Part shown: positions 4,383-64,000 of the stretch, in pieces
Position numbering within the stretch: the stretch's first letter is position 1
How the letters are laid out: each line of letters starts with the position of its first letter
Origin: Lytechinus pictus
Lineage: Eukaryota
Assembly (NCBI RefSeq): GCF_037042905.1
Contig: NC_087251.1
Location: 24,616,001 to 24,680,000 of the forward strand
Direction: 5' to 3'
DNA length: 64,000 nt
Notes under the pieces: model-generated
Told to the model about the DNA's origin: nothing
Seen by the model: only the letters and a program-made list of their open reading frames with translations
Databases searched by the model: none
Program-made: the position numbers and the translations under genes

Positions 4383-5660
4383 CTGTGTAAAAAATAATAA
4401 TAATAACACAAAGATAATAATTAAAATTTTCAGTTCTTGTAATGTATAGTGGTGCTAAAAAAGTTAGTGAACCCCACCATAAAATGAACATATTTAAAGT
4501 GTTCAAGTTCTGCCATGTTTTGGATATTTGAATTGTGAAGTCAGGTGATAAATATTCCATTCAATGAATTTTGTTTCTCTGGGCTCGCCGAACATTGTAG
4601 AGTTGTTGTCGACATTCAACACTTAGCATGAAGGAGTGCATTTTGTGGTGGGATTCACTTTATTACTTTTGAGCACAACTGTATCTGTATCATGTAGTTC
4701 AAGAGAGTGGACTTCTTATAGTTCTTATAGAAGCATGTTGTTGATATATTTCAGAAATGAAGACAGAACAATTCCCCATCTAAGCACGATTTGAGAGAAC
4801 TTTGATAAACAAATTCAGGAATTTCCTCTATAGATGTACCTGCTCTATGTAGAAAAAAAAGCTGAAATATCTGCTTAATGTGGCCGCTAGTTCTCAGTAC
4901 ACACATGTAGGATTGTGTTTTATCAAAGTAAATTCACCACATCAATAATTGATAAAACTAATAAAAGTCAATGACTATGCACACTGCGGTTCCTAGAAAA
5001 TGAACACTTGCCAGACATAGCAACAAGTCATGAATGCAATGTTAATTGTAAGTATTGTAGTTTATTCACTAGTAAGTGAATGGTGTCATACCCCATCAAT
5101 GCCCCCCTAGAAGAAAACAGTTAAACTACATGTACATCTTCAGATAAGGAGTCTGTTGATCATAAAAACTTCATATCTTCCATAGATCAAATTTAGAGTA
5201 TACCACATTCATCGAATGTCAAATGAAGCTTCACTATTTTGACCTACATACTTGTATAAAATTTTGAAAATTGAGTCCACAAAGTGAGTGAAAAGATGCA
5301 ACAAAACATTTTCATACCTTTCATGCATTATGAGATAGCTTTTTTCTTCTGATCTGTGTATCCAAACCTCCTAGTAAACATTAACAAGGTCTATCAACAA
5401 TCTTTCAGGAGTGAGAAGTATACAACTTGTCAATTACTGATCACTCAAAGATGTGTATTAGCATATTATCTTGTTTCATGCTGTTACATAGATTCAATTG
5501 GTTAACAAAACTTTATTAACAAATAAAATTCTAAATGGCATAGAACTTGTAGGTTGGTATTAATCGATATTGTTCTTTTTACAATCACGCCTAATTGCCT
5601 ATAGTATAAAACCCACATGTATACACTGTATATACCCATATATACATACATATATAAGTT

Positions 5661-5702
<42 letters not shown>

Positions 5703-5711
5703 CCCATATAC

Positions 5712-5886
5712 ACTGGGCGTTGTGGCGTGCCCCTGTAATCCAAGCTGTGGGGAAGTTACAAATTGATAGAGGTTCGGGGTTCGAGCCCTGGTCACGTCTT
5801 TCGGATGGTGACGTTAAAGGTCGGTCCCAGACGTAAATAATCATATCTGATTGATACATGTCTGACAAAACTCAAATACACACACA
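5712..5886 (+). mobile_element. Chimeric SINE with 7SL-like head
   Basis: Head ACTGGGCGTTGTGGCGTGCCCCTGTAATCCAAGCT resembles the 7SL/Alu 5' end. It is followed by a B-box GGTTCGAGCCC, a body and a (CA)n tail. ATATATACCCAT occurs on both flanks. Confidence 0.7.
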
Positions 5887-7361
5887 TATATACCCATTGT
5901 CCTATTTAACACAAGATTCATAATATGCAAAGTATCCATTCATATCATGGATATACGTTCACACAGCTTCATAAATGTACATTATGAAAGCATTATATAC
6001 TACACTTGTCTCAAGCAGAGTCAATACATGTTTTTGTACATATCCAGTGATGCATCCCAAATGTGCATGTATTTCATTCTGACATGTTTGGTTCTTAAAA
6101 GCAATCTCCATTAATGCATGCCCCCTCATTGCTATGCAGACATGGACTCCTCCATGTAGACTCAAAGTTATTGGAGCAATACACGCAAGGCATATAAAAC
6201 CCAACATCCTTTTCCTCAGCAAACATCCCTGGGTCGTGGTGGTGGGGATGACAGCGGAACTTGGGTAAACAACATGCATGATGCATAACATCTTATATCA
6301 CATTCATCCATATAAATCAGCCTCATATTTGCGCAAGAAGGCTGGGATAAATCAGAACTATGGCCTATGCTCAATGCTTTTGACTTCAATTACCTCAGCG
6401 ACATCGATCTCACAAAGCCAGTCACATTAGGGAAAGTCTAAATGATTTTTTTCCAAGAATGGAGGAATACAGCCCGAAATATACATGTATCCCATCCATA
6501 ATCTTTTATCTTTTAAAACCACATGAATTGCCTTGGGTGATATATCATTTCAAAATATAATTTCTTAGACCTTTTTTAACGTGAAGTACAATACCAAGAC
6601 ATGGATTCATTTTCCTGGTATCACACTGCAATTTGATATGCATTTCCATTTTTTAGACACAAAATGACTTTTGTGAAGCAGGTTTTTACACAGCATTGTA
6701 CAGAACTTTGATGATACTGTATATAAAAATAGCCTAAATCTGAGGAGGAAATCATTCCCTCCAGGGAAACAATTCACATTTTCTGTACCTGGATCTATTT
6801 TTTCTGCTTTTCTCTATACTGAAAACTGCTTTGTATTAAAACTGAATACATATTACCGGGGTTATGTTTAAATTTAGAAGGACTATTTCTTACATTCCCA
6901 GCTGTACTATTCTTTGCTCCAATGCCTTTGGGAGCTACGATTTGCATAATTTCCCACAATTTTACATGTGGGTCTGAAGACTCTTGAACTAGTAGTACTA
7001 GTAATGTATCTCCTGAATCCTTTAAATTCATATCAGCGATGAATTTTTCCACTACTCATAAAACCTTCACACCAATCTGGTATCCTATTACAACAATACA
7101 ATAGGGACTCCTATAACCATAGGCGATATCCTTCATAACAATATACCAATCATCTAAATGCAAATTTTCATGGTCATATCCATCAGATGCTATTTATCTA
7201 ATCTGAACAGACTGCACTATAAAATATAGTTCCATCTTCATTCCTTTAAAAAAAGATGGAATAAGAAAAAGCTTCAATGTTTTTATTTCATACACGTTCA
7301 CACCAATATTTTTCTACTCACACAAAATTTGCTTGTACTGAAGCTAAATACCAGAATCGAC

Positions 7362-7633
7362 GTGTTTCTACAGAGAATCGTTAAAAATGGTTGATCTTTT
7401 CCGGAACTGAAAAACCACAGAGCAAATAATCCGATTAACTAACATTCCACGTCGCAAATAAACAGATTAACATGGCAATAACCACCTCCCAAAAGTGGTT
7501 ATGAGAAACCGTATTATGCACGATACGGTGTATCAATAAACCACATCGCGTCTGTTCCTACAGGGAAGTTTTCCGCAATTCTGGATACTTACGCGGGAAA
7601 TACCGTTAAACGATTCTCTGTAGAAACAGGGTG
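7362..7633. mobile_element. MITE
   Basis: TIRs TGTTTCTACAGAGAATCGTT / AACGATTCTCTGTAGAAACA. Confidence 0.7.
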
Positions 7634-9575
7634 GCAAAGGGAATACTGATTCCTAGTTCAAAATGATGACTCAACTTGTTTTCCTGCGACATTTTTTAGT
7701 GCAATATTTTATCATTCAGGTGACAGATCTCGATCAGTACAAATTCACAGCTTTACGCTCTGATACAGGCACACAATATTTTGTATGCGTGCCTGCATGA
7801 TCAAAGGAAACTAGCACTTCTGACCCCAAAACCTTCTAAATATTCTTCCTTAACAAATCTAAGAAATGGGATATCTTGGGCAAATAGATAAGAGAAGGTG
7901 CGAAAGCTTCAGGGCATCAGAAGTACATTCACATGTTTCCATCCAATTCAACATCCCCGGGGGAAGATACACACTTTCTCCAATAAATTCTTCAATCTCA
8001 TGCATTTTGAGTGAGAAATGTCATGGTTCACAAGTCTTCTACACACCTTTGGGTGTCCAATAGTAGGATTCTAAGAAAGGCTGTCTGCAAAAGTGAAATG
8101 GGGGATATTGTGTGTCAGAATTCAATTTATATGGGTTATATTTAGCGGCATACTATGCCATGATAACCTATATGAATGCTGATATGATCTTACGCAAGAG
8201 CTTAAAGAAGAATATAATTGGATCAGATAAGTTTACTTCCTGGAAGTGCTAAAAATATTCTTTAAGAATTCAGATAATTGAGGCAGATCGAGATTGATTT
8301 TTTTTCAGGAAATAAAGTAAAATATTTTTGTTACATTATATCCAGTTTGATAAATCTGGACTCTAAAATGAAAGTATGATCATCAACTTAAAACACTACT
8401 AGTAATTCGATCTCAGTCAAATTAAATCAACTCACTTTATACTTGGTAACAAAAATGTCAATATGAACAGCAATAGAGGTTCATACATGAGGAAGCAATG
8501 ATCAAAGATACATGTAGGCCCAAGTGAGTAGCATTCAGTATACATTGTGAAAATATTAAATTAACCCATAAAACAGAGGTGAATGATTAACTTTATAATT
8601 CATTTGTCTGCCAGTAAACAGGCACAGTCTCAGACACAGTGGCACCACAGCCAAGTTAAAGAGATGGCTGGGTTTTTATAAATGTGAGAAGTAATTTGTG
8701 AACTTCAAACATTTCGTTTAAGGTTCCTCACAAAAGAATATCACAATAATGTCAAATAAAGAAGGAATATTTCTTACCAAAATAACACAATGAAAAAACA
8801 TCCTACAGTTTATATGTAAATTTAGCCCTGGATTTACCTGTATACATGTGTATATCAGTGTAATTTTTTTTAATGTTCTTCTGCTGTGACTATCTACATT
8901 GTCAATGATGTATATATTTTTTAACCAGTACAATCTCCTCTATACACATAAACTTTTACAAATTGATTAAGATAAAATTCTTCTTTTTTTAAATATTCAC
9001 TACAACTTCAGCACTCAAACATATTCTCTTTAAACTAAAGTGAGTACATGTAATGAGAAAGTCAAACCCAATGCAGTCATTTCAGAAGTTTGATGTGTAT
9101 GTAGCTTTCAAATCAGCAAGCAAAAAGGACAGCAAACACTGACGCATAGCGAAGCTACATTAGAAGTTGCTCCAGAGGGCTTTTACATTTATTGGAATTA
9201 AAAATTCATACCTTGGCAATCAAAAGACTCGTACAGTATATAGACTGCCTTGTTTTCATACTTTTCTGTGTATATCATAAATTTAGAATATGCACATTGC
9301 ACTGTAAAAAAAAATCATCCAATTTTTACTATGCCATGTAAAAAAAAAAATATTGAAGCTGTTCCATTTACTCCGTGAAAGCAATTAAAAAACAAGATTT
9401 TTAATTTTAAAAAACTGTAACAAATTATATTTCAAAGGTTCACATGTCACAGGTACAAACATGTAGAACATTTATACCAATTAAATGCTTCCAGCATGTA
9501 AACTTTGATGCTTATATATATTTTTATACATATATGCGGGGGGGGGGGGGGGGAGGGGGCCAGGGGTATACTCAC

Positions 9576-10657: not shown

Positions 10658-11021
10658 CTGGAGCCCGTTTCACACGGAGTTACAACTGTTGTAACTTTGA
10701 CATTATGGCAACTACCATGGCAACAGGGCTCAGCAGCCAATCAAAAATGAAGGTTACCATGGTAGTTGCCATAATGGCAAAGTTACAACAATTGCAACTC
10801 TTTATGAAAAAGGGGGGGGGATCATTATCCTCACTATGGTCAGTAGCTTCATGCAAAGCAGGGCCCCGCTTCATAAAGGACCTGCAACTGTTGTAACTTT
10901 GCCATTATGGCAACTACCATGGAAAACGTTATTATGATTGGCTGCTGAGCCCTGTTACCATGGTAGTTGCCATTGTCGCAAAGTTGCAACAGTTGCAAGT
11001 CCTTTATGAAACAGGTCCCAG
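10658..11021. mobile_element. Two adjacent related palindromic MITEs (about 10658-10820 and 10859-11021)
   Basis: Each is a near-full inverted repeat (ACAACTGTTGTAACTTTG..ATGGCAACTACCATGG / CCATGGTAGTTGCCAT..CAAAGTT). Confidence 0.8.
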
Positions 11022-24093: not shown

Positions 24094-24118
24094 AAATAGA
24101 GTATTGTATCCTTGTTAA

Positions 24119-24721
24119 AGGTCAAGTCCACCCCAGAAAAATGTTGATTTGAAGAAATACAGAAAAATCAAATTAGCATAACGCTGAAAATTTCATCAAA
24201 ATCGGATTTAAAATAAGAAAGTTATGACATTTTAAAGTTTCACTTATTTTTCACAAAACAGTGATATGCACAACTCAGTGACATGCAAATGAGATGGTCA
24301 ATGATGTCCATCGCTCACTATTTCTTTTGTTTTTTATTGTTTGAATTATACAATTTTTCATTTTTTACAGATTTGACAATAGGGACCAACTCGACTGAAT
24401 CATATAGTTTTAAGCAATGCTAGTTCCAACTGTTCATGTTGGAATCAAGCATTGTTTCACTTGGCAATGAGGAGAAAATTAGAATATTTCATATTTCATG
24501 TAATAGAATACAAAAGAAATAGTGAGTGGATGACATCATCAGTCTCCTCATTTGCATACCGACCAGGATGTTCGTATAACTGTTTTGTGAAATTAAGCAA
24601 AACTTTAAAATGTCATAACTTTCTTATTTTACATCCGATTTTGATAAGGTTTTTAGTGTTTTGCTTGTTTGATTTTTCTCTTTTTATTCAAATCAACTTT
24701 TTGTTGGGGTGGACTTGTCCT
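24119..24721. mobile_element. TTAA-targeting non-autonomous DNA transposon (Kolobok-like)
   Basis: TTAA|AGGTCAAGTCCACCCC...GGGGTGGACTTGTCCT|TTAA with long subterminal inverted repeats. Confidence 0.85.
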
Positions 24722-27700
24722 TTAAAGAGGCACTCTTGGCTGAAAACTTATGTGATTTAAAGATAGTAAAATAAGATAAAACACTGGAAAATTTATCACA
24801 ATCGGACAAGGAAAAACAAAGTTTTGGGTTTTCAATGTTCTGGTCTTTAAATTTTATTCTATATATTTAAATGTCATTATTTTTATCCTGGAGTGTAAAG
24901 GTACACAGAAGAGATACATGTAGTTCTTTGCATAATCAAAATGACCATGGCAGAGGAGTTTAACACAGATTACAGCAACGAGTGCACACATTGCCCCAAG
25001 ACATCTCTTCCACTTATTGATTTTTTACACAGTGAGGGTCAGCGCTGATAAAGTAAACCATATCCAGGCCTATGGCATTACGACTCAACTCGTGAAGAAT
25101 TGCTAGAGAGCACAAGATCTCATCTCTCTCTTTCTCTCTCTCTCTTCCCCTCCATCAAAATTTTCCACTTGGTGGGCTCACATTATCCTATGCTAATCCT
25201 CCCCCCCCCCCTTCACTGACTATGTATGTCTGGTTGTATTCCTCATAATGCTTTATGATATCTGCTCTACCTGTCATTGATAATATCTATTTGTCCCCCC
25301 CCCCCCTTCCCTCTGTTTCTTAAATCTCTTATTTTCCCACTCAGAAAATTGACTAAAAATAGAAATTCACACCACTTTAAAAAAAATCTAGTTCACATGT
25401 TCTCCCATTCTAGGTTAATCTAATTGGAACATGTATTTCTAATCATCTTGTTATAAATTATATTTCAGGTAATAATGCCTGCATGTATGAAGATTAGTCC
25501 ATGCATTAGTGTGTAAGAGAAAATGGAGCAGTTATTAAAAGCTCCCTCCCAACAGGAAAACAAATCAAATCACATGTATACATCAAATATATGTAAATTA
25601 ATTTGTGGGGGCAACATACATGTACCACCTACCATTGTCTCTATATTTTGTACATGACTGTGTATGTGAACAGGTTGAGATATTAAAGCACTCTACAAAT
25701 TTCCAAGTTGGATTGGAATATATTAGTTCACTTCAATTGAGTTTAGTTTTATAGTCATAGCAACAGGGTCATCAACAACTGATGTTTGTGCTGCTATGAC
25801 TATGAGAATAAAGAATAAAAGAAGATGCTGATGTTTACACAAGTTTAATATAAATTGATGTACAAAATACATGTAATCTAATGTATTAGAAAACAGATTA
25901 TAACAACATTTCTGAACATTACACTCTGGTGTGAAAAGGAATCTCAAAAGCAAATATGAGAAAATATATGCTGCAAGAGCAGAAGACGGATGACACCTAA
26001 AAGAGGTTGTAAGGACCATGAGCATTGGGGATGCTGTTTAAGTGTGCTAATAACATTTTGAGAATGGTTGATAAGTACAATGCATTAAACTACGCGACTA
26101 TCTTCTCGTAGGTCAGTCTTTCCAATTGCTGGTATAGCAAGGATGTTTTCTGGTTTCACTCTGCAATGTAGGAGCAGTATGTACATAGTAATTACCAGTG
26201 AATGACTATAACATCAAGACAAAAGTCAACAGTATACCCACTAGCCACTATACCATCTGAAAGAGGAATATTAATGGAAAAAATATTGAAATGAAGTAGC
26301 AACATTAGAGGATTCATTGTTGCTGTGAAGGATTATCAACCTAAACCTTTTATATAAAAAGACTATACAAAAAATTCTCCGCATCAAAATTTGATAAACA
26401 AAGTGTGCAAGAAAGTAAGAATAAACAAATAAAAAGAGAAGAAAAACATCTTGAAATATCAGGTTGAGAGTTTCTATTATTACATGCTTTCCAGATTAAA
26501 TTTGACCATCAGTACACCCATAGACTGATCAAGGGCCTTAACAGTCCTGGTTCAAATTTCATGAAAAGGTTTTTAGAAAGACGGTCACTCAAGCCACCAA
26601 TTTATACCAGATGCTGTATGAGGCACACGTTCGTAAATCATTATCAACATTTTCTATATATGAAATATAGCCTATTATATCTAAGAACAAAATCACAGAT
26701 TTCTTAATTTCTAGCACTTTTATAGGGCAACTGAATGTTAATTCTGGACTTGAAAACCTCCACGTTCTTTGGAAATTTGGAGCAGGAATATGTGCTTTAA
26801 GCATACTATCCAAGGCTACAGTCGAAGTGTGAAATTCGTGAGAGCATCTCAAGTTGTGTGTTCTGCACAATTTGAGACAGAAATCCATTAGATGGAGATC
26901 ATTCACGCAAATTACATTCACAGGTGGATTACATAGCCATGTGCGACAATGACATGGCCATGTGATCAATGAACAGCCGATCTGCTAATGTGAGCAGAGA
27001 AAGCGAAGAGAGGGAGGGAGAAAACATTCAAGCTAATGTCAATTATTAGATAAAATTCCCTTAATGCCAAATGTTGGTGAGTAAAAAATGTGTTTATCAC
27101 TTTTAATTACATATTGTATTACATGTACATAGAATCTTTGTGAACATTAGACCATGAAATTCATTTCCTATAATAGAATTTCATTTTACATCTGAACATG
27201 GCCAATTCCACAAATGGATGATTTTCTTGGCTTCCCTGCAAATCCCATTCTGGTTGGAAAGGGCTTTTAACACTTGTAGCCCCCCCCCCCCCCCACCACA
27301 CACTCCCACATATTCTCACTTGTATGAACACATTATATCTATTACACTATCATTCTTTCTTTCTCTTTCCTTCCCTTCCTCTCTGCCTCTTTACCTCTCA
27401 TCCTCTCCTTCTAATTCCTGCTTACATTTCTCTGATAACATACACCTACACATATATTTGCCGATGCAGTGATTCTGAATCTAGCTACTACTGCTCTCTT
27501 ACCTCATCTGAAAAAAAAATCATTGATTTCCCCCTTCTGCTATTCATCAAATTTACATGACCCAAGCAATGTAATATTGCATGTTCAATATTCCATTCAT
27601 AATTAGGTTCATGTAATTTAAGTTAAAATGACAGCAGACAAGAATTGCAGTAGAAAAAACAAAGTCGATGCCAAAACGTTCACGTCAGGTTAATCTACTA

Positions 27701-48093: not shown

Positions 48094-49142
48094 ATAATAA
48101 TAATAATAATATATAGCATTTAGAGTGCGCCTTTTATCTAGTTTCCTATTCAGAGGCGCAGAGGGAATTATTACACAGAAGGGGGGGGGTGTTATTTGAA
48201 ATATGAAGAGTATAGATATGTTTTAAGGTTGGCTTTGAATGACTCTATAGATTTGGCATTGCGTATTGTTGATGAGAGTGCATTCCACAAAGTTGGAGCA
48301 CTATGAGCAAAAGCTTTTTCACCAAATGAGCATTTGATTCTACGAGTTGTCAACAACCCGGTCCCTGAAGATCTTAGATTTCTAGAGGGTACATATTCAA
48401 AGATAAGATCGTTAAGATAATGAGGAGCACAACCATCAACAATTTTCCATGTAAGCAACAAAATCTTGAATTTTATTCTCTCTACCACAGGCAACCAGTG
48501 AAGTTCTTTTAGAACAGGCGTTATATGCGTATATTTCGAAGTTTTACTAAGAATTCGGGCAGCGGCATTTTGCACTCTTTGAAGCTTGCGGATCAGGGGT
48601 CCGTTGCAGAAAGAGTTGCGTTTAAACGCAAGTCAAAAAATCAATCTTAAGTCCCAAATGCGCGCTGTTGATTGGTTGAAAATCAAGTTACGCATGATTT
48701 TTATAGTTGCGATTGATTGCAACTCTTTCTGCAACGGGCCCCTGATCATTGTTAGCATTGAACAATAGTCTAAACGAGAAATAATGTATGAATGTATAAC
48801 AGATGAAGTTACATTTGTGGACATGGATTTTCTAATACTAAAAAATTTGGAGATACAAATTTCTACATGTCAAATTCACATGGGAAGCCATTGACAATCA
48901 GAATCAAATTGAACATCAAGGTTCCGTACACTGGGCTTTGCATCAATAAGAGAATTACCAACATAAAAAGATCGACTTTGAATCTTAGACATTTGATTAC
49001 GTGACGCGATGATCAAAAACTCACTCTTATCATCATTCAACTGTAATTTGTTACAAATCATCCAAGTTTTCATTTCAGATATATAGGTTTCCATACGGGT
49101 TCTTGCATTTGCCTCTTCAAGTGGATCAGAAGGATTAAATGA
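48094..49142 (-). mobile_element. 5'-truncated L2/CR1-group LINE (RT C-terminus + 3' UTR), disrupted
   Basis: Translations WMICNKLQLNDDKSEFL, SRLDYC and KLQRVQNAAARIL..HITPVLKELHWLPV..RIKFKILLL..AF..AP.LWN.L; 3' stem-loop and (TAT)n tail; frameshifts and a MITE insertion. Confidence 0.9.
48594..48744. mobile_element. Palindromic MITE inserted in the LINE
   Basis: TIRs CAGGGGTCCGTTGCAGAAAGAGTTGC / GCAACTCTTTCTGCAACGGGCCCCTG. Confidence 0.85.
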
Positions 49143-49519
49143 GGGCCTTTTGGCAACCGATTGATAATAATAATAATAATAATATAGCATTTAGAGTGCG
49201 CCTTCTATCTAGTTTCCTATTTAGAGGCGCAGAGGGAATTATTTGATCATGACTACAATCACTATACAAATAATGGTTTAAAAAATTGTCATAATACATG
49301 CAGTATTCTGTCATCATAATACAAATACGGCTCAATATGGCTTCAAATTTATATACACGATGTCGTATTAATATCATTATACATAGCATTATTAATTGAG
49401 AAAATTTTGAAATAAGGATCTGTTCCAAAACATTAATTGTCCGTTTTTCAGTGAAGAATAATTGTCTACGATTATTGAAAAATAGACCATAAAAAACACA
49501 CACACACCCACACAAAGCA

Positions 49520-49918: not shown

Positions 49919-51061
49919 TTATTTTGATCGACATCTGATTAGTCTCACAAAATTGTGCCTAAACTGGATATCTGTGAAAGCATAAAGAATGGGATTAATA
50001 ACCGAGTTAGCCCATTGGATATTCTCGGTTATATCTAGAACTAAATCACTAATGCATGTTTCTTTACAAAATGAATTCATAGCAATGCAGATTTCATATG
50101 GAAGGCAGCAAATACCAAACACCAATACTACTTTGGCCAGCTTCTTAGCAATTATTTTATTCTTTTGAAGTCTCGCATTTGTAAACTGATCAAATTTTGT
50201 ATTGATTGGTGTCGCGTTCAAGTTTGCTTCTTTTGAAACAGTGTTGATGTTCACAGTCGTTCCTTTTGAAGAAGATGGTTTTAATTCACAATTGTTACCA
50301 TAATTTTCCCGTTTTATAGGTAAGGTATTTGTACCATTGTTTTCATCTGAGCTTCGATTAAACGCGACAACAGGAAATTTATCAAATTGCCTCTTAACAT
50401 TGATAAAAATAAGAACGTTTAAGAAAACAATACTAGAAAATGGTATGAAAAAACCAATAAGACAATGGATCAAAGTTATGACTGGGTTCACTATAAATTC
50501 CATTTCACACTCGTGTAAGTAATCGTCCGTTTCATTTCGTTCACCAAAAGTTGTCCATCCAAAAGAAGTTAAGGAACAAAATGTAAAGTAGATTATCCAA
50601 GCTGGTATTACGGCATATCGAACACGTTTTCGTGTGACTAATGATCGGTGTTTCATTGGCTTTGCAACGATCAAATATCTATCGATACTGATGAATACGA
50701 TGACGACGACCGACATATAAACAGCGACGTAGTCGACGATGCAGTATAACCTACAGACGAATTGACCGAATAACCAACGTCCACTAACAATATATGTCAG
50801 ATTGACCGGGAGCGATACGGAACCGACGATGAAATCGGCAATGGCCAGGTTGAGAATGATTAGGTTTGCCGGTCGTTGACGGAGCTTTCTGTCTTGAGCG
50901 TATGAAATGATGACGAGGAGATTGCCCACGACAGTGATCGTGATGAGGAATCCGTAGATGACGATTATCGGAATCAAGGTGGAAATAGGTCGGCTCCATT
51001 TTTCTCCTGAAGACAAGACCGGTGTATTATTGATAATTTTCATTGAACCGTCAATATCCAT
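49919..51061 (-). CDS. Class A (rhodopsin-like) aminergic GPCR, histamine H3/muscarinic-like, about 380 aa, uninterrupted CDS
   Basis: Seven hydrophobic segments with GN (TM1), LAIAD (TM2), W-x-FG...C, TM3 Asp3.32 (IVDY), DRY, FFIP (TM5), CCLP (TM6) and WANSVINPILY (TM7). Start placed at MDIDG, just after the acceptor ttacctacag; the ORF is open up to 51169. Confidence 0.92.
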   Translation of the reverse strand: MDIDGSMKIINNTPVLSSGEKWSRPISTLIPIIVIYGFLITITVVGNLLVIISYAQDRKLRQRPANLIILNLAIADFIVGSVSLPVNLTYIVSGRWLFGQFVCRLYCIVDYVAVYMSVVVIVFISIDRYLIVAKPMKHRSLVTRKRVRYAVIPAWIIYFTFCSLTSFGWTTFGERNETDDYLHECEMEFIVNPVITLIHCLIGFFIPFSSIVFLNVLIFINVKRQFDKFPVVAFNRSSDENNGTNTLPIKRENYGNNCELKPSSSKGTTVNINTVSKEANLNATPINTKFDQFTNARLQKNKIIAKKLAKVVLVFGICCLPYEICIAMNSFCKETCISDLVLDITENIQWANSVINPILYAFTDIQFRHNFVRLIRCRSK

Positions 51062-51656
51062 AATCTGTAGGTAAGTAATTAAATTTGATTGGAAAACAAA
51101 ATCAATATATGTATACAACGTAAAAAGTGAATGACATAAGATATGTAAATGAGCGAAAAGTTCCTCCATTAGAACACGGATTATGATCCGTCGTAGTCAT
51201 CACAGTCCTATAGTTTCTTGTGTTGTCTTGATTTTTTTTTTCAATAAAAACCCAAAGCTCTGGGAAGCGGGTAATGGAGGCACCCCAAGATTATTATGGG
51301 GGCGATGCTATGTTATTAGGAGGCAAAACCTGGAATTTAAGTTGGTAATGTTAACAATATAGAAATATGACCCAAACCACCTTGATTTTGGAGCGATAAT
51401 CTTATTTTTATTTTTATTTTTTGCTTGTCATTTTTCCTAACCAGCATCCCCTCTTAAAAAAACCGTTCCCATGCAGACCCCTGAAAAAACCCTATTATGA
51501 AAAAGGGTATATGATAAAATAAATCTATGTCGTGCCACGCCCCACTCTTATTTTACAAGGGGATGGTGCGACGAATGTGGAGCTGAAGCAGCAGACACAG
51601 TCGACTGTATGATATTTCAGGTTTAGGAAAACAGGCACGACGAGGGATAGAGGAAT

Positions 51657-57407: not shown

Positions 57408-58383
57408 AACAAGTGGAATGCCTCTGGCCGTCTCACCTGCATCACGCGATTCAATATAGCAGCAGTGCTGATTTTGAAAACTACTATAACTCGCACAAGA
57501 TGTTCAGTGATACTTGGTTACTCTTATTTCCACGTTTTATGAACTAGACCAATACACTTATAGAGATATGATGGCAATTCAACAAATACCCCCAACGTGG
57601 CCAAAGTTCTTTGACCTTACATGACCTTTGACCTTGATCATGTGACCTGAAACTCGCACAGGATGTTCAGTGATACTTGATTACTATTATGTCCAAGTTT
57701 TATGAACTAGACCAACACACTTTCAAATTTATGGCTGTAATTCAACAAATACCCCAATTTGGTCAAAGTTCATTGACCCTAAATGACCTTTGACCTTGAT
57801 CATGTGACCTGAAACTTGCACAGGATGTTCAGTAATACTTGATTACTATTATGTCCAAGTTTCATGAATCAGATCCATAAACTTTCAAAGTTATGATGGT
57901 AATTCAACAGATACCCCCAATTCGGCCAAAGTTCATTGACCCTAAATGACCTTTGACCTTGGTCATGTGACGTGAAACTCATGCAGGATATTCAGTGATA
58001 CTTGATTAACCTTATGTATAAGTTTCATGAACTAGGTCCATATATTTTCTAAGTTATGATGACATTTCAAAAACTTAACCTTAGGTTAAGATTTTGATGT
58101 TGATTACCCCAACATGGTCTAAGTTCATTGACCCTAAATGACCTTTGACCTTGGTCATGTGACATGAAAGTCAGGCAGGATGTTCAGTAATACTTGATTA
58201 ACCTTATGGCCAAGTTTCATGAACTAGGTCCATATACTTTCTAAGTTATGCTGTCATTTCAAAAACTTAACCTCAGGTTAAGATTTGGTGTTGACGCCGC
58301 CGTCGCCGCCGCCGCCGCCGCCGCCGTCGCCGTCGGAAAAGCGGCGCCTATAGTCTCACTCTGCTATGCAGGTGAGACAAAAA
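57408..58383 (-). mobile_element. DINE-1/HINE-like (Helentron-associated) non-autonomous element
   Basis: 13-bp subterminal inverted repeats GTCTCACCTGCAT (57430-57442 / 58366-58378), adjacent partial IR, (GCC)n tract, five central repeats of about 160-190 bp, A/T-run flanks. Confidence 0.7.
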
Positions 58384-60479
58384 CTCACCAGAATAAGGGG
58401 TTAGTTTCTTGGGGAACAAATTTCGATGATGCGGCTTCTATTGCCAGAAATATCCTCTTTTTCTGATAAAGTTTACTCAAGTTTAAATTGCTAATGATTA
58501 AAATGACTATTACCGGACATTTACAAATCTCAAATAAACATCGTTGGTTTGAAATATAATCACCATGGTTATAAAAGTATATAGGATTTATAGAGAAAGG
58601 GTGGGCTGTGATAGACGAATATTTTTGTGAAGATTTGGTTGCTTCGATCAAGAACCGTTGATACTACAGTAAGTAGGGTCGTCAGATTTGGCATCTTCAC
58701 CATCATCATTCATCAATTTATATGAATTTAAAATCACTGAATTCTAATCAAAATGGGAAAAAAGTAAAATGGCTTGAAAATGGTACAACTGGTAAGGCTC
58801 TCCATCATCAGCCCTGCCATCATCATCATCATCATCATGACCACCACTTACTGCCATCATCATTCCTAGGTTTGGGAATTTTTATTTATCAATTGTCACT
58901 TGTCAGCACGCGTTCTATCCTCTTTTTTTGTTGTTGATACAAAGTAGGTCAAACATTTTTATAAATCAGAATTTTTAATAACATCCTCATGCCACAAACC
59001 AATGTAAATGGTAAGCTTTAACTCTTAAATACCTTCCTGAGATGAAGTCCATGTTAAATCTAATATTGTGTAATGTATTATGAATTGGGCCCCATTACCC
59101 CCATCCCCTTCCTTCGACTTATACACACAATGCAATGTTTTAAAAACTTAAATAGGCTTGTTCATGCACTGGGAAACTAAAATAAAAGAACATCTTAACT
59201 ATTTAGAATAAAGAGATTGTTCACAGATAAACAGGCAAATGCAACAATCTTGTACAATATCAACAGATTTAATATTTCCTCTTCATAAAAGTACAATTAT
59301 TTTTACTTTATGTTATTAAATACTAAAATACATGGCAACTTCTTCCATCATTACAATATAAGCACAAAACATGTATTCTACAACACAGAAGTGACACACA
59401 AGAATTGTTTCTTCCAGTTTTTAAATTACATACCTAGCCTTACTGGCCTGAATTCTCGAAAGAGGTTTTGATTGTACCATACTAATAAACCTTGAAGTAT
59501 GCAGATTTTTGTACATAAGTGTGCTTATTTCATTGCATACACCAAGAAAATATCCAATCAAATGCATGCTTTTCACAAAGGCCACTATAAAAGGGAAGCG
59601 TAAATATACAAGAAATCTGCATCATCCATGGATCTGTACCTTGGTACAATTGAAACCCCCAAGGCCCACTGTGTTGTTGTTATTTTAGCTTATACGGCGC
59701 AAATCATTCAGTAGTGAATATTTGCACCAGCATAATTTGCGGTAATTGTTATATAACTAGGTTTCATTCATGCCAGCCTTAATACAAGGCAAAGTTAATA
59801 GGGTTACATGTCCATGCTGTGAAGAGCCTGGGAGGAGACTACCAATGAAGAGCAAGCTTGGATGGGTAGGCACTTATGATCCAAGTTTGAAAGGAGACTC
59901 GTAAAATGACGTCAGTCTCGCCGATGAATATTCATTAGATCGTGGTCGTGCGTGTTCAATACACACTGCGTGCAGGCATGCAGATAGTTATATGCGAGGA
60001 ACTTTGGCTCCAGAGACAAGTTGTCAAATAACGTGTGTGTGTGTGCGTGTGTGTACCATCGGCTGGTAGTATGCCATGCTGTCTAAGACTTCAAACGCGT
60101 CGGATTCGGTAAAACGAAGTTTCCGATATAAAGAGATAATAAAATAACACTATGTACAGTACGCCCGGGGGGGCCACTTATATTGACGAGTGGATACCAT
60201 GCGCGACCCAAAAAACATGTCAAAAGGATGTCTTTTTCAAGAGAGGGCACGTTACGTATAACGTGATAAGGGTGTCAAAAACACAAAAATATTGAAAAAA
60301 GGGTATCTATTTCCAGTACGTCGAGGCAAATGTCAGATCAGGGGAGCAGGAGTACAATCAGGTTTTTTTAAAGGGAAGAATAGTGTAGAATAAAAGGTAT
60401 TATATATAGCCAAATGATCTAGGTGAGGGAAGTGAACAATGATGTTTAAAAAAAAAAGAATGAATATACCTTACCTGAA

Positions 60480-62247
60480 TATTATGGTGAAGCCAATTTA
60501 AAAGGAGGTGAGACAAGTTTCAATGGAGGTTTTAAAAAAGAATAAACTGTATTATGGTGAAGCCAATTTAAAAGGAGGTGAGGCAAGTTTTAATGGAGGT
60601 TTTTAAAAAGAATAAACTGTATTATGGTGAAGCCAATTTAAAAGGAGCTAGGTGAGGCAAGTTTCAATGGAGGTTTTTAAAAAGAATAAACTGTACTACA
60701 AATTATGGTGAAGCCAATTTAAAAGGAGGTGAGGCAAGTTTCAATTGAGGTTTTTAAAAAGAATAAACTGTACTACAAATTTAAAAGGAGGCGAGGCAAG
60801 TTTCAATGGAGGTTTTTAAAAAAGAATAAACTGTACTACAAATTATGGTGAAGCCAATTTAAAAGGAGGTGAGGCAAGTTTTAATGGAGGTTTTTAAAAA
60901 GAATAAACTGTATTATGGTGAAGCCAATTTAAAAGGAGGTGAGGCAAGTTTCAATGGAGGTTTTTAAAAAGAATAAACTGTACTACAAATTATGGTGAAG
61001 CCAATTTAAAAGGAGCTAGGTGAGGCAAGTTTTAATGGAGGTTTTTAAAAAGAATAAACTGTATTATGGTGAAGCCAATTTAAAAGGATGTGAGGCAAGC
61101 TTCAAAGGAGGTTTTTAAAAAGAATAAACTGTACTACAAATTATGGTGAAGCCAATTTAAAAGGAGGTGAGGCAAGTTTCAATGGAGCTTTTTAAAAAGA
61201 ATAAACTGTATATGGTGAAGCCAATTTAAAAGGAGGTGAGGCAAGTTTCAATGGAGGTTTTTAAAAAGAATAAACTGTATTATGGTGAAGCCAATTTAAA
61301 AGGAGGTGAGGCAAGTTTCAATGGAGGTTTTTAAAAAGAATAAACTGTACTACAAATTATGGTGAAGCCAATTTAAAAGGAGGTGAGGCAAGTTTCAATG
61401 GAGGTTTTTTAAAAGAATAAACTGTATATATGGTGAAGCCAATTTGAAAGGAGGTGAGGCAAGTTTCAATGGAGGTTTTTAAAAAGAATAAACTGTATTA
61501 TGGTGAAGCCAATTTAAAAGGAGGTGAGGCAAGTTTCAATGGAGGTTTTTAAAAAGAATAAACTGTACTACAAATTATGGTGAAGCCAATTTAAAAGGAG
61601 GTGAGGCAAGTTTCAATGGAGCTTTTTAAAAAGAATAAACTGTATATGGTGAAGCCAATTTAAAAGGAGGTGAGGCAAGTTTCAATGGAGGTTTTTAAAA
61701 AGAATAAACTGTATTATGGTGAAGCCAATTTAAAAGGAGGTGAGGCAAGTTTCAATGGAGGTTTTTAAAAAGAATAAACTGTACTACAAATTATGGTGAA
61801 GCCAATTTAAAAGGAGGTGAGGCAATTAGTTTCAATGGAGGTTTTTTAAAAGAATAAACTGTATATATGGTGAAGCCAATTTAAAAGGAGGTGAGGCAAG
61901 TTTCAATGGAGGTTTTTAAAAAGAATAAACTGTATTATGGTGAAGCCAGTTTAAAATAAGGAGGTGAGGCAAGTTTCAATGAAAGTTTTTAAAAAAGAAT
62001 AAACTGTACTACAAATTTAAAAGGAGGCGAGGCAAGTTTCAATGGAGGTTTTTAAAAAAGAATAAACTGTACTACAAATTATGGTGAAGCCAATTCAAAA
62101 GGAGGTGAGGCAAGTTTCAATGGAGGTTTTTAAAAAAGAATAAACTGTACTACAAATTATGGTGAAGCCAATTCAAAAGGAGGTGAGGCAAGTTTCAATG
62201 GAGGTTTTTAAAAAGAATAAACTGTATTATGGTGAAGCCAATTTAAA
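60480..62247. repeat. Tandem satellite, 70/78-bp monomer, about 24 copies
   Basis: TATTATGGTGAAGCCAATTTAAAAGGAGGTGAGGCAAGTTTCAATGGAGGTTTTTAAAAAGAATAAACTG repeated, with or without a TACTACAAAT variant. Confidence 0.97.
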
Positions 62248-62710: not shown

Positions 62711-63315
62711 TTGTAATTTGTCTTCCTAGCAGTACAACTTTTGCTTCCATGATCAGAGCAGATCTAACATAGACTTTAGACAAAGCTCCATGTCTGATAT
62801 AACATGTATTTCATTGCCTGATGTCTCATGACATCGGGCATCAAAAGTGCGAATCGGCGCATCGGCATGCTCATGGATAATTCATAGCAAGCAGTAAAAG
62901 CAAAAATTTATAAGGCATCGCAACTGAAGTTGCTTGATCTCGCATGTGTCCGCGGGTTTTGCCATTTCTCTTCTTCGTCAAACTAACCTTATTTTAGCCA
63001 CTACTTGAAGAAGTCATGCTGCCTTGTCAAAAGGCTAGATCTAATAAATAAAGCATTATCTCCTTTGATGATGCGTCACCATTCACATTATGCAAATCCA
63101 GGTGAAGATCAATGCTGTGCTGTTTCTCTTTCATATTATAAACAATTTATTTTTTATGTGATAGCAAGATTGGTATTTTTACAAGCATTCTTTATTTTCT
63201 TCTTATGAAATTAATTTATACCCTGGGACACTGTTTGTGACTTTTTGTAGTAAATATTCAATGACTATGCAATTTGTGTAAAACAGGTATTTCTTTAAGG
63301 CAGTTGGCAGCTTAA

Positions 63316-63765
63316 AGGTCAAGTCCACCCCAGGAAAATGCTGACTTGAATAAATAGAGAAAATTCAAACTTGCATAATGCTGAAAATTTCATCAAAATC
63401 AAACGTAGAATAAGAAAGTTTTGACATTTTAAAGTTTCGCTTATTTTTGACAAAACAGTGATATACACAACAAGGTGAGTCAGTCGATGATGTCAATCAC
63501 TCACTATTTCGTTTGTTTTTTACTGTTTGAATTATACAATATTTCATTTTCTATAAATTTGACAATAAGGACCAACTTGACTGAACCATATAGTATTAAA
63601 CAAAGCTATAATTCCACATGTTCAGGGAGGAATTAATCGTTGTATCACTTGACATTGAGGAGAAAATTAGAATATTTCATATTTCCTATAATAAAATACA
63701 AAAGAAATAGTGAGAGGATGACGTCATCAGTCTCCTCAGGTGCATACAGACCAGGATGTGCATAT
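63316..63765. mobile_element. Right-truncated copy of the 24119-24721 family
   Basis: TTAA|AGGTCAAGTCCACCCC start; colinear similarity up to ACCAGGATG. Confidence 0.85.
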
Positions 63766-64000
63766 ATCCAGGTGAAGATCAATGCTGTGCTGTTTCTCTT
63801 TCATATTATAAACAATTTATTTTTTATGTGATAGCAAGATTGGTATTTTTACAAGCATTCTTTATTTTCTTCTTATGAAATTAATTTATACCCTGGGACA
63901 CTGTTTGTGACTTTTTGTAGTAAAAAGTTTTTCCCAGTTTTTCCCAGTTTTTCTGGGGGGGGGGGGGGGGGGTGGGAAGGGTAGATATTTTTAGGACGGG

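Follow-up and report, generated by a model that had tools for sequence, protein, structure and literature searches.

SINEs derived from 7SL RNA are stated to be confined to supraprimates, hagfish and the shrew mole (PMC10886601, 2024; PMC13023118, 2026), and the hosts listed in PMC10886601 and PMC5786205 are vertebrates only. All known 7SL SINEs keep both ends of the RNA around nearly the same deletion, an arrangement interpreted as showing that the entire Alu domain is required (PMC10886601, PMC13023118). The first-pass annotation of the sea urchin DNA described here placed such elements in Euarchontoglires and hagfish; those lineages are right, and the shrew-mole family Urop is 7SL-derived as well (PMC13023118). 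Alu, B1 and Tu of Euarchontoglires, together with Urop, share with the sea urchin element the 5' Alu domain, the A box, the U-turn triad and the loop complement, and they have an internal deletion of ~183 nt with both 7SL ends kept, poly(A) and a dependence on L1 (PMC13023118). In contrast, the sea urchin element carries a foreign body and lacks both poly(A) and the 3' part of 7SL.

The hagfish family SINE1-1_EBu (Ebu1-1) of Eptatretus burgeri, like our element in all likelihood, gained its 7SL head by chimera with an older tRNA SINE, and the two appear alike in non-L1 mobilisation, a microsatellite tail and target-site duplications (PMC7245038). However, Ebu1-1 carries 96 nt of the 7SL 5' end and ~44 nt of the 3' end, owes both its A and its B box to 7SL, and combines 3' parts of RTE origin with an (AAC)n tail (PMC7245038), whereas the sea urchin element has 45-47 nt of the 5' domain only, a tRNA-type B box, a Deu/Nin-like body, a (CA)n tail and an invertebrate host. 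A second Pol III RNA placed by template switch before a partial tRNA head on a Deu-type body is also described for the 5S-headed DeuSINEs (SINE3-type; PMC4824008, PMC4758252). In our element the donor is 7SL rather than 5S, the tRNA B box is apparently retained, and the body is far below the 330-nt vertebrate Deu domain.

Within sea urchins, the Repbase SINEs SINE2-3_SP (Deu), SINE2-1/2_SP (Meta) and SURF1/SINE2-4c_SP are all tRNA-headed by their listing (PMC4824008, PMC3747384); they come from the same animal group as the element, and SINE2-3_SP has a Deu/Nin domain. The sea urchin SINEs named in the accessible text of PMC3747384, PMC4758252 and PMC5804259 are tRNA-type wherever a head is given, and that of PMC11481361, PMC3531059 and PMC9734144 mentions no 7SL-headed invertebrate SINE. 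The literature searched yielded none either, within a scope that left out most subscription papers, Repbase Reports, and the Repbase, Dfam and SINEBase databases. The annotation had warned that the family might already be catalogued. Within that same scope no such entry surfaced, and we put the existence of a catalogue entry naming a 7SL head at about one chance in four.

The element works like a SINE1 yet is not of the Alu/B1/Urop/Ebu1-1 type. Compared with the metazoan model, it has the 7SL-derived 5' part that marks SINE1 in the broad sense (PMC7245038), and its letters hold the Alu-type determinants for SRP9/14. The arrangement common to Alu, B1, Tu, Urop and Ebu1-1, with both 7SL ends around a central deletion, is absent, and by eye so is that of a MetaSINE. 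At 175 nt the element is well below the 1 kb that SINEBase allows, and it is interspersed and non-tandem, with 77-102 contigs per run entering unlike flanks and one head-to-tail pair. Repeats of 11-12 nt and an allele without the element speak for target-site duplication and insertion, with the left repeat being ambiguous. SINEBase also calls for at least 60% identity to tRNA, 5S or 7SL RNA over at least 60 nt (PMC3531059), a cataloguing cut-off that the element misses, at 70% over 44-45 nt, because its head is hybrid.

A 7SL-like head in a FEZ2 intron

The repeat unit occupies 5712-5886 on the plus strand of the window (the whole 64-kb stretch of DNA that was analysed), and its 175 bases were located at exactly these positions. 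It lies antisense within a minus-strand intron (4386-9575) of FEZ2 (fasciculation and elongation protein zeta), between exons placed by tblastn at 9686-9576 and 4385-4218. Over the aligned parts, identity of the FEZ2 exons is 98.9% to Lytechinus pictus, 97.5% to L. variegatus, 95.9% to Strongylocentrotus purpuratus and 93.7% to Diadema (tblastn), which points to an echinoid host, probably Lytechinus. The gene's exons (PF07763) lie on the minus strand at 42971-42666, 9686-9576, 4385-4218 and 3684-3553, with a first coding intron of ~33 kb. BLAST of the window found no second copy of the element within the 64 kb. We are confident that this unit represents one full-length member of a dispersed, multi-copy sea urchin repeat family, a 7SL-headed chimeric SINE, and that family is likely mobile. 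This copy, an antisense intronic insertion with a damaged head, has no evident function of its own. The annotation had proposed an independent SINE family, a hybrid of 7SL A box and tRNA B box, in an echinoderm-like lineage. A dispersed multi-copy echinoid family in which a 7SL-like head is combined with a tRNA-type B box and a (CA)n tail is supported by the Rfam match, the contig pile-up, the siblings and the FEZ2 context.

The head (5712-5756, plus strand) aligns to positions 1-44 of Metazoa_SRP (RF00017), the Alu 5' domain of 7SL (SRP) RNA, at 25.4 bits, E 3.7e-5 and a posterior of 0.98 (cmscan of 5708-5900 against 4227 Rfam families). The other three matches of that scan have E values of 2-4, and no tRNA family appears among all of Rfam up to E 10. 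A second Rfam scan of the element gave Metazoa_SRP at E 1.2e-5, with posteriors of 2-6 beyond the head in an alignment forced to full length. Identity to the consensus is 31/44 positions (70%), the reference being the metazoan model and not the host's 7SL gene. The score is far under the model's gathering threshold of 70, as expected since the head covers 15% of the model, and when the whole 64-kb window is scanned at E<=0.01 the SRP match to the head is absent from the list. Taken alone, the statistic would offer modest evidence for the match, which gains its weight because the model starts at the element's first base and ends at a domain boundary. The annotation had counted 26/35 matches by hand to the 7SL 5' end; the count is right and the Rfam scan agrees independently. 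Its choice between a tRNA D-arm and 7SL likewise falls to SRP RNA, for this copy and within Rfam.

Eleven of the 14 model pairs are kept. The G4/U23/G24 triad and the GGC/GCU loop complement stand at the same numbers as the determinants of SRP9/14 binding and of the pseudoknot (G4-U23-G24, GGC/GCU; PMC12265939), a correspondence at the level of sequence. The closing helix reads ACU/AGU here vs gCc/gGc in the model consensus, with both sides changed yet still paired. This copy is also worn: its first helix has lost three pairs, and it lacks two loop bases. Other copies carry an extra two bases behind 5746 (7, 9 and 26 contigs in DNA runs X1, X2 and X10), which bring loop 2 nearer the model consensus and make the head 47 bases long. 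Thermodynamic folding of the head is no better than that of shuffles (z +0.99), and in this copy the Alu fold is less stable than the minimum-energy fold by 13.6 kcal/mol. The element lacks the 3' part of 7SL and with it the 3' strand of the Alu domain, which every published 7SL SINE retains; the local alignment stops at model position 44. Inside the 7SL part, a putative Pol III A box (5716-5725, plus strand) is identical at 8/10 positions to the human A box printed in PMC7245038. Rfam microRNA matches at 5580-5770 were set aside as an artefact of the AT microsatellite. A pattern scan for the head motif found 0 instances in prokaryote genomes and viral contigs; that 0/100 shuffles matched a pattern drawn from the element itself is circular and was not counted.

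Body, 3' end and insertion site

Behind the head lies a linker (5757-5774, plus strand), which falls outside the SRP alignment and varies among copies through small insertions and deletions at 5767-5773. It leads into a tRNA T-arm-like segment (5775-5791, plus strand) that shares 7-11/17 positions with the B-box segments of four sibling loci, L001-L004. The B box that the annotation had pointed to is present at 5778-5788. The T-arm it described is a likeness by eye: no tRNA model matches the segment (ARAGORN on the window, 0 genes; Rfam), which appears, from its letters, to be of tRNA origin.

The central body (5791-5828, plus strand) is conserved in L001-L004 and holds a short Deu/Nin-like segment. 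By eye, it agrees at ~30/38 bases with the start of what follows the Meta domain in a BivaMD-SINE1 row, a part of that SINE assigned to Deu/Nin (PMC4824008). The likeness, which carries no score, covers 38 nt of one row in the supplement to that paper, and in invertebrates the Deu/Nin central domain is described as 70-120 nt long. MetaSINEs are described as having a 66-nt Meta domain directly behind the tRNA head, and the annotation had seen a MetaSINE-like central segment here. We rejected a Meta-domain reading of the body, which has no by-eye likeness to the region that BivaMeta-SINE1 and BivaMD-SINE1 share after their tRNA part; it resembles instead, again by eye, the post-Meta Deu/Nin part of BivaMD-SINE1 in the PMC4824008 supplement.

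A predicted 3' stem-loop follows (5828-5864, plus strand) and is likely the signal for a partner LINE. Its z score is -3.0, with 1/200 shuffles as stable, for bounds picked after the fold was seen. The counterpart in L002 scores z -4.0, those in L001 and L003 are non-significant, and there are no compensatory changes in the stem-loop among the five sequences. Stem-loops of this kind at the 3' end characterise stringent LINE-SINE pairs (PMC3747384). No partner LINE was found; the last 20 bases resemble bivalve tails, a weak lead towards a Nimb/I-group element. A possible interaction between the 5' end and the terminus of the body was discarded, being lost in longer folds and in the siblings. 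The element closes with an A/C-rich end and a (CA)4 tail (5865-5886, plus strand). The (CA)n tail of the annotation is real, with four CA units in this copy (5878-5886); other copies carry more CA and then enter unlike flanks at 5886.

The repeats on both sides that the annotation took as resembling target-site duplications are also present, although the left copy is ambiguous and the word occurs three times. The right repeat (5886-5897, plus strand) has 12- and 11-base matches to two left candidates on the same strand: a near one (5696-5707), 12 nt identical to 5886-5897 and 4 nt before the element, and a far one (5629-5639), 11 nt identical to 5887-5897. A shared 10-base word at 5630-5639, 5698-5707 and 5888-5897 has no other plus-strand place in the window. 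Record 17 of run X2, at a depth of 46.9, covers 5415-5639 and 5920-6200; only 16 letters separate the two blocks, vs 280 in the window (5640-5919), and the record apparently represents an allele without the element and without the AT-rich stretch 5640-5711. The far left copy is favoured because the first aligned block of this apparently empty allele stops at 5639. Most simply, the record is the pre-insertion site, and 5629-5639 would then be the left duplication. Its gap of 16 letters falls 6 short of the 22 expected if the site were cleanly pre-insertion, and loss of the sequence between the repeats by deletion may have given the same picture. The AT-rich microsatellite stretch between the left repeats (5640-5695), missing from the empty allele, would be either part of the insertion or later slippage.

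Dispersal, siblings and transcription

Three DNA runs and one RNA run, from 24 listed, were aligned at 80% likeness to 5400-6200, and human-matching records were dropped. The element region gathers 3694 and 3121 contigs in two runs of organism A and 3278 in one of organism B, and summed depth, 35-47 across the flanks, reaches about a million over the body. Relative to the flank, depth in the head bin is 10,242x and 12,226x in organism A and 470x in organism B; in the body bin it is 22,695x and 26,134x in organism A and 27,431x in organism B. Summed contig depth is not copy number, and these ratios overstate copies up to 31-fold because short contigs overlap by up to 30 letters. Dividing by 31 leaves floors of 330 and 394 for the head in organism A and 15 in organism B, and of about 730-885 for the body. 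The body is equally abundant in organism B, with a head bin at ~2% of body depth at 80% likeness; there the head is rarer or more diverged.

Contigs leaving the tail at 5886 into unlike flanks number 102, 81 and 77 (X1, X2, X10), with an agreement of 0.38-0.42. Among 24 pieces listed, with 10,109 further ones, 14 begin within 5715-5732 and extend across the body; they come from both organisms, have depths of 17-64 and differ from the window by 9-25 letters. These headed pieces of single-copy depth are separate, older headed copies. The annotation's own worry that the sequence might be single-copy is removed by this pile-up with varied flanks in two organisms. In run X2 one contig passes from 5886 to 5727, the CA tail going straight into another head; this head-to-tail pair hints at insertion into the element's own tail or at a dimeric form.

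A pattern scan with a 20-base body motif recovered four loci in metagenome contigs (L001-L004) and 0 in prokaryote genomes and viral contigs. Over body and tail (5791-5878) these siblings are 85-94% identical to the element, while the 63 bases before their B-box segments match it at 42-47%, around the shuffled level of 46%. The heads of L002-L004 seem tRNA-like by eye, with B boxes of their own, and ARAGORN (0 genes) and Rfam (0 matches at E<=1) found no tRNA or Rfam family in the four loci. Scanned alone, the L002 head gave a match to tRNA-like mascRNA at E 1.4, which was not counted as evidence; the D- and T-arm words of this head (426-490) presumably resemble those of tRNA-His. The head of L001 (400-482) is unlike those of the other three siblings and unlike 7SL, with no Rfam match. 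L003 has a 20-base tandem duplication in its body (501-540) and L004 a 9-base duplication in the loop of its 3' hairpin (314-330), and both end in (AACC)n and not (CA)n. With at least four different heads attached to one type of body and tail, the 7SL form is most readily interpreted as the product of a head swap that spared the T-arm segment.

In RNA run X21, 2043 of 12.9 million reads fall on the family, equally on both strands and with almost none on the flanks, and 79% of them run on into other sequence. No pile of read starts occurs at 5712 in this run. The reads fit family copies embedded in longer transcripts, and are compatible with both the presence and the absence of Pol III transcripts.

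Origin, competing readings and neighbouring features

We propose that an older tRNA-headed SINE had its front exchanged for the 7SL 5' domain, probably by template switch, for which the 5S-plus-partial-tRNA heads of Deu SINEs are a precedent (PMC4824008). Transcription by Pol III would then start from a hybrid promoter made of the 7SL A box (5716-5725) and the retained B box of the tRNA T-arm (5778-5788), whose spacing is about that of 7SL (positions 6 and 76, PMC7245038). As with Alu, the RNA would reach ribosomes through SRP9/14 bound to its folded Alu 5' domain. Its 3' stem-loop and (CA)n end would be read by the reverse transcriptase of a stringent-type LINE, and target-primed reverse transcription would insert the new copy with a target-site duplication of 10-12 bases. 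Alu itself depends on SRP9/14 binding for efficient mobility, which a G25C change cut by 88% (as reviewed in PMC11581171), and the same role is plausible here because the determinants are kept. We regard the chances that such binding matters for mobility as about even.

The same family, with the same 7SL origin, could instead have taken from 7SL only an A box and start site, the Alu fold and SRP9/14 being idle and mobility passing wholly through the 3' stem-loop. That the head serves only as a promoter has about even chances, because the 3' strand of the domain is missing and the same body succeeds behind other heads. As a complete account, with no part for SRP9/14, we rate it slightly below even. 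It is in keeping with an Alu fold that is not the lowest-energy one in this copy, and with a body and tail that stand behind unrelated heads and have a head bin at ~2% of body in organism B. A pure promoter donor leaves unexplained, however, why the borrowed piece ends at a domain boundary (model position 44), far past the A box, and why the closing helix, the U-turn triad and the loop complement are kept, although this last counter-argument is weak because a young family would keep such determinants without selection. A head that is a decayed tRNA or some other Pol III head, Alu-like by chance or through A-box convergence, we think improbable. The 45 matched bases, the borderline significance in the whole window, the resemblance between tRNA and 7SL A boxes, and the use of a metazoan model in place of host 7SL all leave it some room; against it stand 31/44 identities spread across both helices, the U-turn and the loops, a model that starts at the first base, the lack of any tRNA model to E 10, and the want of likeness to the siblings' tRNA-like heads.

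It is still less probable that the element is a one-off chimeric retrocopy, a 7SL fragment joined to a tRNA SINE in a single reverse transcription and not self-propagating. The window does hold one copy, and head depth is under half of body depth; however, the head stands at hundreds to thousands of times flank depth, and several contigs of single-copy depth, from two organisms, include both head and body. Contamination by human or rodent Alu or B1, or an assembly artefact, would account for an Alu-like head, and we consider it extremely unlikely: the element sits in an intron of an echinoid gene, flanks and element recur in several runs, human-matching records had been dropped, and body and tail are unrelated to Alu.

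Returning to the 7SL-headed chimeric SINE, we suggest tentatively, and at clearly less than an even chance, that it is the first invertebrate 7SL SINE lineage and a fourth independent origin, of an unprecedented design in which only a 45-47-base SRP9/14-binding 5' domain was plugged onto a widespread Deu/Nin-type body and tail, elsewhere tRNA-headed, in a family that is still polymorphic. A sea urchin family of this kind would widen the distribution of 7SL SINEs beyond vertebrates. If SRP9/14 binds and boosts mobility, a minimal Alu 5' domain would suffice for ribosome targeting with a non-L1 LINE, and a genetically tractable animal would offer a natural comparison of headed and unheaded forms. 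Siblings with other heads on the same body would make the contribution of the Alu domain to retrotransposition directly testable, and a polymorphic insertion suggests recent activity and usable population markers. To this picture the present analysis adds the apparently empty allele, copies bearing the head in a second organism, and siblings from other samples that carry different heads.

The window holds several further features. Two minus-strand frames (48192-48632 and 48876-49190) resemble what we take to be the C-terminal part of a decayed L2/CR1-type reverse transcriptase; Pfam gave no match for the fragments at 48192-49190, and nothing ties them to the tail of the element. An intronless frame of 425 codons on the minus strand (49919-51196) encodes a rhodopsin-family GPCR (PF00001, E 1.4e-53). 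Tandem arrays with periods of ~70 and ~163 bases lie at 60387-62247 and 57488-58294. Direct repeats of 159 bases, 100% identical (63096-63254 and 63766-63924), enclose a 450-base repeat with an internal inverted likeness that recurs at 24115-24725 (84%); the structure at 63096-63924 is either an assembly join or a MITE-like element whose flanking duplication is unusually long. A long hairpin-like repeat at 10709-10969, which scores 79 bits on Rfam MIR6217 (gathering threshold 110), is probably a MITE.
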